DNA from: Escherichia coli
GTDB taxonomy: Bacteria; Pseudomonadota; Gammaproteobacteria; Enterobacterales; Enterobacteriaceae
Direction: 5' to 3' (one strand)
Assembly (NCBI RefSeq): GCF_003334385.1
Contig: NZ_QOWN01000043.1
DNA length: 37,210 nucleotides
The position numbers are program-made. Below are positions 3,001-9,000 of this stretch, piece after piece (position 1 is the first letter of the stretch; every line of letters begins with the position of its first letter).

Positions 3001-6000
3001 AAATTGCCGCATATCCGGCATTCCGGGGGGTAAATCTTTCGGCACAGGCGCATCCGGTACAGGTTGTGTGGCACCACAGTTCCAGTTAATCACTGGCGCA
3101 TCACCGTTCACATCCGACTCCCCTTCCAGATGAATGTGCGTACCGTTGAGAAATATGCTTCCGTCCTTCGTCAGCACCAGCCTTGCCTTACCACAGCAGA
3201 GTTCAAGATGCTCACCGGCAGAATAAACTGCTGTTTGTCCGGTGTTTTCCTTCATCGTCTTGCCCACCGAGAAGGTGACGTTATTCCCCACATTGACGCT
3301 GTAGCCCATTCCCACCATCAGTGATTTATGCAGCCCTACCTGTGAGGACTGCAACAACGCCACCGAGGTATTCATAATGCCGCCTACCGTCGTCTGGTAA
3401 GCCACACCCACCGTCAGCGCACGAATGATCCCCACCTTTTCAACCTGGTTTGATCCCACTTTGATAATCTGGTTACTACCCACCGTTTCCACCTGGTTGA
3501 CACCAACCGTCTGTATCTGATTAACGCCAATGTTCTGGATCTGGTTATTGGTAACGGTGATCGCCTGGTTGTTACCTATTTTTTCGGCATGGTTGTTTAT
3601 CACATCAGTGGTGCGGTTATTCAGCACCTCGGTGTTCATGTTCTTCTGCGCGTGGATGTAGACCTGTTCTTTCCCTGTCGCATCGTCAAACTTCAGTTCA
3701 TTAAACCCGCTGCCCTTATAGGTTTTCGAACGAATGGTCATCTGCGTCTTTGTTCCCGGCAGGCTGCCGGGTGTGCGGTTTTCCTGGTGGTAGGTGCGCC
3801 CCATAATGATCGGCTGGTCCGGATCGCCGTTGAGGAAGTCCACAATCACCTCCTGACCCACACGCGGTATCGCCAGGTTACCGAATCCGGTGCCTGCCCA
3901 CGCCTGTGCCACACGGATCCAGCATGAACTGTCCTGGTTTGACGGGTTATAACGGTCCCAGTTAAATTTCACCCGCACGCGGCCATGTTCATCACAGAAG
4001 ATTTCCTCGCCTGCCGGTCCCGTCACGACGGCGCTCTGCGGGCCGTCCACCAGCGGTTTCAGCAACGGCTGTGGCCGCCATGTCCGGTCTGCCGGTATTA
4101 CCGCAAAGTGGTTATTCAGCGTGGTTCCTGAACCACTGCGTCCCGGCACCGCCTGCGGCTGCTCGCCGTGCAGTTCACTTGCCACCACCTGCCATTCCCG
4201 GTTCAGGTTCGCCTGCGGATGCCCCGTCAGCACAATTCGCCGTCCCGGCCATATCTCCGGAGAACGGCTTGTTCCGCGCGCCACTTCTGCGTTGTTGCGC
4301 CAGCCATCCATCTGCCAGCGGGCAAAGTTCTGCCCGTGAGCACCCTTGAAACGTCCGGGGTAGTCATACACTTCATACTGTGTGCGCTGGTAATCCTGGT
4401 ACTGGCCTTCCTGATCAAAACGCCCTGCCCAGCCGGGTCGTTTAAAGGTGTAGTCTTTGGTCACCACGGAAGAAGGGCGGATTTGTGCGCTGTAGCGAAA
4501 CTGGCTGATGCAGAGGGTGCTTACCTCGGTACGGGTGTTCGGATTCCAGGGGATCTCAAAGGACTCCGGCAGATAACGCACGGTATCGCACAGGACCAGG
4601 CTCTGGTCGGTACTTTTTTGCGCGTGCTCCTCATAAAAGAAGATGCCTTCCTCCGCCGCCATCCGGCACAGGAAATCGTAATCAGTCTCACCGTACTGGA
4701 CACAAAACTCACGGGAAGGATGTGGCTCGCTGAACAGCGGGCTCCACTCGGTCACCCCGTTTTCCTGCAATATCGTGCCGAGGATGCTTTCGATGTCCTC
4801 ATTCTGGAAGATACGGAAGTTCTGGCGCAGCCCTGTGCGCCACAGCGGCGGGCATACCTTCATGCTGTACAGCTTCTGGTTTTTGTCGTTCTCCCCCAGT
4901 TCAAACCAGGTCACCACACCTTTCACCCGGCGCTGTACGTCATCGCCCTGCCATATCGTCAGGTAGGCCATTTTGTCGAGGATCTGCTGGAATTCAAGGG
5001 AGAGAAACTGCTGGCTGACCAGAGAGAGATCGAGGGAAAAAAGCGAAGAGAGTGACTGGTTCAGATGAAAGGAAACCACCGCAAAAGCATCCGGTGGCAG
5101 GCCGTCCACTTCCAGCGTGAAACGTAATCCGGTTGACATAGCAACCTCCGGGGTTAAGGAAAAACAGACAGTTCGCTGTTAAAGCGGCTGTGACAGTACA
5201 GTGTTACGCTTGCGTTCAGGCACGCTACCGCCGAAGTTTCCGGCAGCCGCCATCTCCCGTGAACGTAACCCCTTACTGACAACCTTTCTTTCTACGGCGT
5301 AATACAAAAACAGCATCCGGCCTGATAGCCGGATGCTGTTGGCTTAACTTATGCTTCCAGCGGTGCGCGCCAGTCGTCGGCACCGGAGGTGCCAGATTTG
5401 ACGTGTTCCCATTCAATTTTGCGGTAGGCCAGTGAAACTTCGAGCAACTGGGTGAACTCGCGTTTCGCCGGGTCCTGGCAATGCGGCATATGCAGTTTCA
5501 TATCGACAATCGTCGAATCAGTCAGGCGGGTAGTGAAATAATGCTCCTGTTTGCCTTCCACAGAGGTACGCCACCAGTGAAGTTCAGTGGTTGGCAGCAT
5601 TTCGCCGGAGGCCAGTGCGTTGTACATCAGCGGAACCGCTTTGTTCAGCGCCACGGTAAAAATGAAAGGCTTGTGAGCACGCTGACCCGCAGGCTGACCG
5701 GACTGAGGATCGGTCGGGACAGTAACGTTATGCAGGAATTCCTGCACCAGCATCTCGTCTTCGTGCCCCTGCACATAGATGTTGCCGACAGAATCAGCGG
5801 TAAATGCACCTGCAGTAATATTTCCCTGGGTCTGACCAGTGATGGAGATATAACACGGTGTTGGCATTTGTAAACTCCTTGTTAACGTGGTTAATTACTA
5901 CTTACAATGACCTGCCGTGAATCCCAGACAGGCAGATGCAGCTCACTTCACGGAACCGCATCATTTTCAGTATTTTTTACATACAAACCGAGCTAGAATT

Positions 6001-9000
6001 TACGGTTGTCGTAAAAACTATTTTTAAAATCATTAAATCTCTTATTCAGCAATAACTTAATAATATATATCTGGATAACCATACCCAACTGTTCAAAGTC
6101 CGTATTGCCTCCATAAAATGGCCAAAGCTGAATCATGAATAAATATTGTATTTATCCTTTCTGAATTATCATTTTGATAATTTTTGAGATATTCCTTAAA
6201 AATACCCACTTAATCAATCACAAAACAAATATATAAACAAGCAATCATTAGATTAGCTTATGTTTAATAAAATTACTATATAATTCAATAAGATGCATAA
6301 AAATTCTATATTTAAATTATTGCCATAATACACCTGACGCGAATTGCACAGGTTCATACAATCTATTTAACGCTTGCAGAATACCCCTCTTTACGATCGA
6401 TAAAAAGTCCTTTTCTTATTTATTTTGAAGCGTAAAATGCGGGGTGATGAAGGAGTGGTGATTTTATTTTCACCGCCATCAAGGCGGCATTTCCGATATT
6501 TTTTACGGTACGAATATGCCGTGTTCATGGCCTGTACGAGATAACATGACGGATCACTTTTATGAGCAAAAAATTTGAAGGCAGCGTCGCGCCTCGCGAA
6601 CGTATTAATATATCGTATGTCCCAAAAACAGATGGCCAGACGGCTGAAGTGGAACTTCCGCTTAACATGCTCGTTGTCGGCGATACCGGAAATACGCAGG
6701 AAACATCCTCACTGGATGAACGTCAGGCAGTTTCCGTTAACAAGCACAATTTCGGTGCAGTGATGGCTGAAGCAGCCATTGGCCTCAATTTTACCGTCCC
6801 CGCCACGCTGAAGGGAAGCACAACGGACGATGAGCTGAATGTGGCGCTGAATATCAAGTCACTGGATGATTTTTCACCAGATAGCGTGGCCCGGCAGGTT
6901 CCGGAAGTGAATAAATTGCTGGAACTGCGTGAAGCACTGACTGCACTGAAGGGGCCGATGGGTAACCTTCCGGCATTCCGTACCCAGCTCCAGGCATTGC
7001 TGGAAAATGAAGAGTCCCGCGAGCAGTTGCTCAAAGAAATCGGCCAGGTGAGCAATAAATAACCACCACTATTTCATTAAACAGGGTTATCCAGGCATGA
7101 CGGCACACAAAAATATCTCCGGGACATACCACCTCTCTGTTGCAGACATTCTGCAGGTGGTTTACCAGGTATGTTTCAGCCCGTCCGTTGAAATCAACCA
7201 GGATGGTGTGGCTGCGCTGATTACAACACTGGATCGCCGTATCAGTGATCTATTGGATGAGATTATCCATTTTTGTGAGTTTCAGCAGAGCGCGTCGCAC
7301 TGGCAGCGCGTACTTCACTGATGGCGAAAAGCCGGTTTCAGAAACACAGCTAAAACAGAAGGATTTTCAGTATGTCTTTACAGGAAGAGGAACTCGTTTC
7401 CAGTCATGCCGGGCAGCCTGAGCAGGCATCGTCGCTGCTTGATCAAATCATGGCACAGACCCGTATTCAGCCCGGTTCGGAAGGTTATGACGTTGCCCGC
7501 CAGGGTGTGACAGCCTTTATTGCCAGCATCCTGCAATCCACTGCATCTGCCGAACCGGTCAATAAACTGGTCGTGGACAGCATGATTGCAGATATTGATG
7601 AACGCATCAGCCGCCAGATGGATGTCATCATCCATGCGCCTGCCTTTCAGCAGGTCGAGTCGTTCTGGCGCTCACTGAAAACCATGGTGGATCGCGTTGA
7701 TTTCCGTGAAAACATCAAGGTCAACGTGCTTCATGTCACCAAGCAGGAACTTCTGGAAGACTTTGAGTTTGCGCCAGAAATTATTCAGTCCGGATTTTAT
7801 AAGCACGTTTATTCGTCCGGTTTCGGACAGTTTGGCGGTGAACCCATCGCTGCCGTGCTGGGCGCTTATGAGTTCAAAAATACCGCGCCTGACATGAAAC
7901 TGCTGCAATACGTCAGTGCAGTGGGCGCAATGGCGCACGCACCGTTCCTGTCCTCCGTTTCCCCGGAGTTTATGGGGCTGAACTCGTGGACCGAACTGCC
8001 TAATATCAAAGATCTTTATGCCATCTTTGAAGGTCCGGCCTACACCAAATGGCGCGCCCTGCGTGACTCGGAAGATTCGCGCTATTTAGGGCTTACAGCA
8101 CCCCGCTTCCTGCTTCGCCAGCCCTATTCACCAACAGATAACCCTGTTAAGAACTTTAACTATTACGAAGATGTCAGCCAGAACCACGAAGATTATCTGT
8201 GGGGTAATACGGCCTGGATGCTGGCATGCAATATCGCAGACAGTTTTGCCAAATACCGCTGGTGTCCAAACATTATCGGTCCGCAAAGCGGCGGCGCAGT
8301 GAAAGATCTGCCGGTGCATCTGTTCGAAACGATGGGGCAGATTCAGGCCAAAATCCCAACCGAGGTGCTGGTCACCGATCGCCGCGAATTTGAACTGGCT
8401 GAAGAGGGTTTTATCACCCTTACCATGCGTAAAGACTCTGATAATGCAGCCTTTTTCTCTGCAAACTCGGTACAAAAACCGAAGCACTTTCCGGGAAAAG
8501 ATGCAGAAACCAACTATAAGCTGGGTACGCAGCTTCCTTATCTCTTCATCATCAATCGGTTAGCGCACTACATCAAGGTGTTGCAGCGTGAACAACAGGG
8601 GTCATGGAAAGAAAGGAGCGACTTAGAAAGAGAGCTTAATACCTGGATCCGTCAGTATGTTGCCGACCAGGAAAACCCGCCTGCAGACGTGCGCAGCCGC
8701 AAACCTCTGCGCGCTGCCAAAGTTGAGGTTATGGATGTAGAAGGCGAACCCGGCTGGTACCAGGTTGCGCTAAGCGTGAGACCTCATTTTAAATTTATGG
8801 GGGCAAATTTTGAGCTTTCCCTGGTTGGCCGGTTAGACAGGGAGTAACACACCATGATACCGGATCGGGAAAGAACCACAGGTTCTCTTTTTGAGCGTAT
8901 GGAAGCCTCTTCGGCCAGAAACCGGCAGGGAGGCAGTATTCATTCGCTCAGGCAATCCATTCGCCAGAACCTACGAAACATTCTTAATACCCGGTCCGGT

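Follow-up and report, generated by a model that had tools for sequence, protein, structure and literature searches.

In EDL933, an enterohemorrhagic Escherichia coli (EHEC) strain of serotype O157:H7, the spacer between the divergent genes hcp3 and tssB of a type VI secretion system (T6SS) is termed an unknown bidirectional promoter, "t6sP" (Vazquez-Lopez et al., PMC13141884). The T6SS cluster of this strain is nearly silent in vitro, and deletion of hns strongly derepresses its T6SS transcripts (Wan et al., PMC5363993). PMC13141884, with reference to Wan 2017 and Kim 2022, states that H-NS binds between hcp3 and tssB; the same source refers to Kim et al. 2022 for several transcription starts in t6sP and cites CsrA as a negative regulator of hcp3 and tssC. 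None of the media tested consistently activates t6sP, the low-iron sci-1 inducing medium (SIM) included (PMC13141884). Here, we describe the same spacer in another E. coli, where 694 bp of noncoding DNA (positions 5868-6561) separate hcp from tssB on a stretch of 37,210 nucleotides of contig NZ_QOWN01000043.1 (assembly GCF_003334385.1), hereafter the window. A preliminary description of this DNA had proposed an H-NS-silenced promoter region with a Fur-box-like element and, possibly, a small RNA (sRNA).

Other T6SS promoter regions are known in some detail. In the T6SS2 of avian and extraintestinal pathogenic E. coli (APEC/ExPEC), the hcp2B-vipA2 region (PMC5874247, PMC6534853) is also a divergent hcp-tssB spacer, of 705 bp and 31% GC, found in roughly the same place on the chromosome (3.90 Mb in strain UPEC129) and repressed by H-NS. 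There, iron limitation and Fur were without effect on clpV2 and hcp2B, whereas hns inactivation had an effect (Ma et al., PMC5874247), and phosphorylated CpxR shifts the hcp2B promoter (Yi et al., PMC6534853). For sci-1, the T6SS-1 of enteroaggregative E. coli (EAEC), Fur binding and iron control have been demonstrated; its fur1 box overlaps both the -10 element and a GATC site, and the working Fur boxes match only 13/19 and 11/19 positions (PMC3145626). The T6SSs of Salmonella pathogenicity island 6 (SPI-6) and Vibrio parahaemolyticus (PMC10482370) resemble the window in having an AT-rich, acquired promoter region repressed by H-NS, but they belong to other T6SS subtypes with other promoter sequences, and SPI-6 is also reported to be Fur-regulated.

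The AT-rich spacer and its silencing

The window carries the aspV-linked chromosomal island called T6SS-2 in E. coli, and its hcp-tssB spacer is that of EDL933: the O157:H7 copy is about 98% identical over the full length, lies in the same island between the same flanking genes, and differs from it only at the allelic level. Of t6sP, repression by H-NS, several transcription starts and the lack of a known inducing signal are reported. The spacer is therefore an already studied, known feature, an ordinary H-NS-silenced promoter. We put at roughly 0.8 the probability that it is the bidirectional control region of the T6SS-2 island, silenced by H-NS, with the promoters, the leader and the palindrome acting as proposed below. 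What is new here, offered as predictions, is the conservation of the spacer's length and composition, the conserved block proximal to tssB, the GGA hairpin in the hcp leader and the reading of the palindrome as promoter elements. T6SS-2 is present in about 40% of sequenced E. coli, O157:H7 included, is silent in the laboratory and has no known natural trigger.

The spacer fills exactly the gap between hcp (5349-5867, minus strand) and tssB (6562-7062, plus strand), the longest between annotated genes in the window (the runner-up has 327 bp), and its GC content is 32.9% compared with 52.6% for the window; both its size and its AT richness had been correctly noted beforehand. The lowest GC content in a 200-bp stretch of the spacer is 20%, with values of 20 to 25% around 6000-6300. 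Matches in the spacer to the H-NS motif TCGWTWAATT with at most two mismatches number eight, about four times the density in the remaining window. The AT content is thus well above that of the host, as in H-NS-silenced xenogeneic promoters, and the DNA counts as horizontally acquired, as the island abuts a tRNA-Asp gene and the spacer occurs in 2,236 of 5,426 complete E. coli genomes (41%), one copy each, at 95 to 99.7% identity. No annotation lies under these matches. The proposal that this is an acquired, H-NS-silenced promoter is borne out by the AT-rich spacer in a tRNA-Asp-linked island and by the derepression of the EDL933 copy upon hns deletion (PMC5363993). H-NS would nucleate on, and spread from, the AT-rich core (Table 1), a platform from which it would keep both operons off under laboratory conditions. 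While silencing has been reported experimentally for the near-identical EDL933 copy, we infer the bases that H-NS contacts, as we do the promoters, the transcription starts and the CsrA site discussed below.

Within this T6SS subfamily, the length and AT richness of the spacer are conserved, although its central sequence is not. We compared 13 co-oriented hcp-tssB spacers from at least six genera: the window, O157, Escherichia albertii, Yokenella regensburgei, Citrobacter youngae, the E. coli variants L015 and UPEC129 (L016), two Salmonella enterica loci, Superficieibacter, Citrobacter farmeri, a strain of the Enterobacter cloacae complex and Buttiauxella. A contig scan with TssB gave four of the loci, and the rest came from a protein search and contig look-ups. 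The spacers measure 536 to 705 bp at 29 to 34% GC, with flanks of 44 to 54%. The spacers of Yokenella and C. youngae are about 55 to 70% identical to that of the window near hcp and across the tssB promoter block, and about 28 to 50% in the core, near the level of aligned unrelated AT-rich DNA. In distant blastn matches of the spacer within E. coli, other T6SS-2 variants were matched over the hcp leader only (24% coverage, 70% identity), their spacer cores being unalignable. A scan for conserved 12-mers was dominated by low-complexity AT-rich matches, and only the collinear ones were used. The APEC primers fit the UPEC129 locus perfectly; the central part of that spacer is unalignable with the window, the palindrome is absent from it, and what the two have in common is limited to the leader hairpin, the ribosome-binding sites and the block of the proximal tssB promoter. 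Since the architecture is shared but not the central sequence, results from APEC/ExPEC T6SS2 transfer to the window by analogy only.

Table 1. Features of the hcp-tssB spacer, in window coordinates
Feature	Position	Strand	Remarks
Whole divergent hcp-tssB control region	5868-6561		"t6sP" in the EHEC literature; AT-rich, reported to be H-NS-silenced
hcp Shine-Dalgarno AAGGAG (RNA sense)	5874-5881	-	With the second GGA; invariant in 8 aligned loci
hcp 5' leader hairpin, predicted; RNA sense GCCUGUCUGGGAUUCACGGCAGGU	5910-5933	-	GGA in or at the loop; 42 nt between hairpin end and AUG
Second hcp leader hairpin, predicted; GAUGCGGUUCC...GAGCUGCAUC	5935-5962	-	E. albertii, L015 and UPEC129 keep it, with changed pairs
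AT-rich core	5980-6400		About 420 bp, 28% GC (25 to 30%); composition conserved between genera, sequence poorly
Predicted distal promoter towards hcp	6145-6172	-	ATGATA, 16-nt spacer, TACAAT; -10 at 6150-6145
"Fur-box-like" palindrome AATTATCA-TTT-TGATAATT	6164-6182		Fur score at chance; arms coincide with two -35-like hexamers
Predicted distal promoter towards tssB	6174-6203	+	TTGATA, 18-nt spacer, AAAAAT
Conserved upstream block AGAATACCCCTCTTTA	6378-6393	+	About 50 bp upstream of the proximal -10; candidate regulator site
GATC	6395-6398		213 bp separate it from the palindrome; the proximal -10 lies about 35 bp downstream
Predicted proximal tssB promoter	6411-6438	+	Weak -35 TTTTCT (6411-6416), 16-nt spacer, -10 TAAAAT (6433-6438)
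GATC	6552-6555		Within the tssB ribosome-binding region (ACGGATCAC); 370 bp from the palindrome

Conserved blocks next to tssB and hcp

On the tssB side, three blocks are common to eight loci of four genera: AGAATACCCC (from 6378), AAAAAGTnCTTyTC (6402-6415) and GCGTARAATG (6430-6439). The predicted proximal tssB promoter falls within the stretch from the second to the third. The consensus scan flags a homologous promoter in L015 (TTTTCA-16-TAGAAT) and in the Salmonella locus L017 (TTCTCA-16-TAAAAT), and the sole change in the -10 hexamer within the E. coli copies is from TAAAAT to TAGAAT. E. albertii, C. youngae, L015, UPEC129 and L017 have the upstream block at a collinear position as well. 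Transcription of tssB would start from the conserved proximal promoter, giving a leader of about 117 nt, and possibly also from a distal promoter near 6200.

The tssB leader also contains a 53-bp block (6440-6493), with two small hairpins and an AAGGAG that precedes a GTG, that is found only in Escherichia-type spacers and is absent from Yokenella, C. youngae and L017. An upstream open reading frame (ORF) of 39 aa (6425-6544), which passes through this block and is not conserved, was rejected as a candidate, given the Escherichia-only 53-bp block and the loss of its internal ATG in O157. Two further readings of the tssB-proximal blocks were dropped by eye: a sigma-54 promoter, as there is no GG-N10-GC, and an RcsB box, as the half-sites have the wrong spacing or letters.

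On the hcp side, the transcript would have a leader of at least 100 nt with two conserved hairpins. The one closer to the gene was present in eight loci, always ending 38 to 43 nt before the AUG, and in all eight its fold had the greater stability in the hcp sense (-8.8 to -14.4 kcal/mol) than in the antisense (-1.3 to -12.2 kcal/mol), as expected if G-U pairs are tolerated in RNA. We consider this moderate support for a hairpin that would display a GGA about 40 nt upstream of the AAGGAG. A GGA in a hairpin loop together with a second GGA at the ribosome-binding site, spaced within the range that CsrA bridges, is the geometry of a CsrA-controlled leader, and the predicted hcp leader has it, with its first GGA in or at the loop.

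It is possible, if doubtful, that the blocks shared across genera are the handles through which T6SS-2 is activated, the GGA hairpin of the hcp leader being a CsrA switch and the segment from AGAATACCCC to AAAAAGTnCTTyTC, shortly upstream of the proximal tssB -10, the site of an activator that counters H-NS. If this were true, the blocks could be used directly as baits to find the T6SS-2 regulator. The cross-genus footprint in any case narrows experiments from 700 bp of AT-rich DNA to a few short conserved blocks.

The central palindrome

The palindrome AATTATCATTTTGATAATT is perfect, with 8-bp arms and a 3-bp spacer. The preliminary description had placed a Fur-hexamer-like element at 6165-6183; the element exists, but its position was one base off. 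Each arm falls on a -35-like hexamer, the two standing back to back: ATGATA (6172-6167) reads on the minus strand and TTGATA (6174-6179) on the plus strand. This arrangement would explain the symmetry without Fur. The best reading of the palindrome is that its hexamers belong to a central pair of divergent promoters, or else that it arose by chance in AT-rich DNA; we do not read it as a Fur operator. Homologous sites are flagged in L015 (GTGACA-16-TATAAT, 11/12 matches, and TTGATA-16-TATTTT), and the -10 hexamer predicted for the distal hcp promoter is kept as TAYAAT in E. albertii, L015 and L017.

Several observations weigh against this overall picture of promoters, leader and palindrome. Consensus promoter scans of AT-rich DNA yield many false positives, and the scan gave five hits in the window where 3.4 were expected and none in E. 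albertii; moreover, E. albertii has a 4-bp indel that upsets the element spacing in the predicted distal hcp promoter. Both distal promoters are predicted only. For the hcp leader, RNAalifold gave no consensus structure on a MAFFT alignment, and a count of base pairs on the same alignment was no better than controls. These alignment-based tests were negative because loop lengths differ between clades and were misaligned by MAFFT, so that support for the hairpin comes from folding each sequence separately, sense versus antisense. Finally, a central patch (6108-6227) is 68 to 81% identical to E. albertii, above the rest of the core, and a functional element may coincide with the palindrome or adjoin it.

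The last point could be taken to mean that the palindrome and the patch around it (about 6120-6205) are the operator of a dedicated regulator other than Fur that counters H-NS, for instance the LysR-type LeuO or ArgP. Within these limits, the patch is 72 to 81% identical to E. albertii, compared with 33 to 60% for the adjacent core DNA, and TCATGAATAAATATT and TCATTTTGATAA recur collinearly in several variants; in addition, predictions for t6sP include sites for LeuO and ArgP (PMC13141884). However, a perfect palindrome with 8-bp arms appeared in 15% of 2,000 dinucleotide shuffles of the spacer, and the left arm is not conserved. The agreement of TATCATTTTGATA with the LysR-type pattern T-N11-A, for which a protein of this class is named, counts for little, the pattern being very loose in AT-rich DNA. 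We regard such an operator as unlikely and retain the reading as -35-like hexamers or chance.

That iron-loaded Fur binds the palindrome and represses one or both operons, perhaps modulated by Dam as in EAEC sci-1, is very unlikely. To score it, we built a symmetric, consensus-seeded 19-bp matrix from 11 Fur-regulated promoter regions of E. coli K-12 MG1655 (fepA-fes, fepD-entS, fepB-entC, fhuA, fecI, cirA, tonB, exbB, fiu, ryhB and fhuF), which reproduces the consensus GATAATGATAATCATTATC and gives the known sites 9.6 to 20.9 bits in leave-one-out scoring. The palindrome is the top 19-mer of the spacer, and its 10.1 bits (12/19 consensus matches) equal the weakest genuine sites (tonB, 10.1; exbB, 9.6). 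A second Fur-like 19-mer at 6138-6156, 26 bp away, matches 13/19 positions (8.8 bits) and is fully conserved in E. albertii, and the palindrome overlaps the -35-like hexamers of the predicted central promoters, with the conserved proximal promoter of tssB about 250 bp away. Yet the shuffles reached a mean best score of 10.4 bits (standard deviation, 2.2), half of them attaining 10.1 or more, and the four spacer sites of at least 8 bits (2.3 expected) were equaled in 22% of shuffles, which is not significant. Four sites elsewhere in the window score higher, 12.0 to 13.7 bits, in DNA unrelated to iron: between a lipoprotein gene and tRNA-Asp (28827-28845), in an AT-rich gene (27838-27856), within vgrG (4671-4689) and within tssK (14856-14874).

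Nor is the element maintained among relatives. E. albertii has a broken left arm, Yokenella and C. youngae lack the element altogether, and ten E. coli copies carry either A or G at position 6171. The orthologous spacers carry no common Fur-site signal, their best scores being at chance in most loci (Fisher combination of the orthologue fractions, about 0.14 by our own calculation). The resemblance to a Fur box thus neither rises above background nor recurs in orthologous promoters, and the Fur proposal is not supported, given the outcome of the matrix scan that had been suggested as its check, the lack of conservation and the insensitivity of clpV2 and hcp2B to Fur and iron in the APEC variant (PMC5874247); low-iron SIM also failed to activate t6sP reporters consistently. 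As working boxes can match as few as 11 to 13 of 19 positions, the sequence alone leaves room for weak Fur binding. A Fur box at chance level nonetheless saves effort on an iron hypothesis that lacks sequence support.

The comparison with sci-1 (PMC3145626) leads in the same direction. The window resembles it in having a predicted sigma-70-type promoter upstream of the tssB homologue, weak Fur-like 19-mers and GATC sites, but the palindrome lies 379 bp from tssB, scores at chance and overlaps no GATC. The positions given beforehand for the two GATC sites were right (Table 1). As neither overlaps the palindrome, the Fur/Dam arrangement of sci-1 is not reproduced. Their number is at chance (2, compared with a null mean of 1.8; 55% of nulls have at least 2). 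The first is lost in E. albertii, the second is kept there, and both are absent in Yokenella and C. youngae, so that conservation of either ends with Escherichia. A role for Dam is not supported.

An independent sRNA gene is extremely improbable: the spacer is long and has a conserved central patch and promoter-like sites on both strands, but an Rfam scan of 5000-7500 gave no match at E values up to 1, neither the window spacer nor those of four orthologues contained an intrinsic terminator, the fold z-scores (-1.3 and -1.9) were not significant, and its two structured segments, which lie next to the start codons of hcp and tssB, behave like mRNA leaders. A search for a reported sRNA of O-island 7 hit OI-71 and OI-79 only.

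Other repeats are found around the palindrome. The hcp-proximal region is connected with the palindrome's right half by a 24-nt direct repeat of 79% identity (5960-5983, ATCATTTTCAGTATTTTTTACATA; 6168-6191, ATCATTTTGATAATTTTTGAGATA), both copies of which are largely kept in E. albertii. Other T6SS-2 variants have perfect palindromes beside the homologous position, ATTCCTTAAAGGAAT in UPEC129 (L016, about 3353-3367) and TAAGGATATCCTTA in L015 (about 3321-3334); as seen by eye, they are built around a GATATyCCTTA motif that corresponds to GATATTCCTTA at 6188-6198 of the window.

The island and its variation among strains

In the window, vgrG (2998-5139) and hcp lie on the minus strand, followed by the divergent tssB, a 74-aa ORF, tssC, tssE and tssF. 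Downstream of tssF come the rest of the T6SS up to tssM, a gene with a VasL domain, a second hcp, the adjoining tRNA-Asp gene (29133-29209), dnaQ and rnhA. Most of the listed copies of the window-type spacer are at 3.7 to 4.1 Mb of the chromosome. Different T6SS variants that share this divergent layout are found in other E. coli; the one of UPEC129 occupies roughly the same position.

Immediately after hcp, the spacer that separates it from vgrG (5140-5348) contains a strong, terminator-like hairpin (5309-5340, minus strand; stem of 14 bp), which matches the terminator of the EHEC "h3R region I" (PMC13141884). The 74-aa ORF between tssB and tssC (7097-7321, plus strand) is the RefSeq hypothetical protein WP_000123970.1. 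A 70-aa gene is called in the same place in the Salmonella locus L017 (3034-3246), and tssB directly adjoins tssC in UPEC129, L015 and loci L018 to L022.

Unlike some O157 records, the window has an intact vgrG (an ORF of 713 aa) and a tssM ORF without apparent frameshift. Decay is seen in some strains: tssM is frameshifted in one O157:H7 record (L001, 35256-38748), and vgrG of strain SCU-104 (L023, 2998-5139) has an internal stop. Ten E. coli copies of the spacer differ at 55 alignment columns, 46 of them outside a 5' truncation in strain EC581 (L025, 1-109). There, the spacer is 7 bp short at the hcp end, where it abuts an RHS pseudogene, so that hcp has apparently been deleted.

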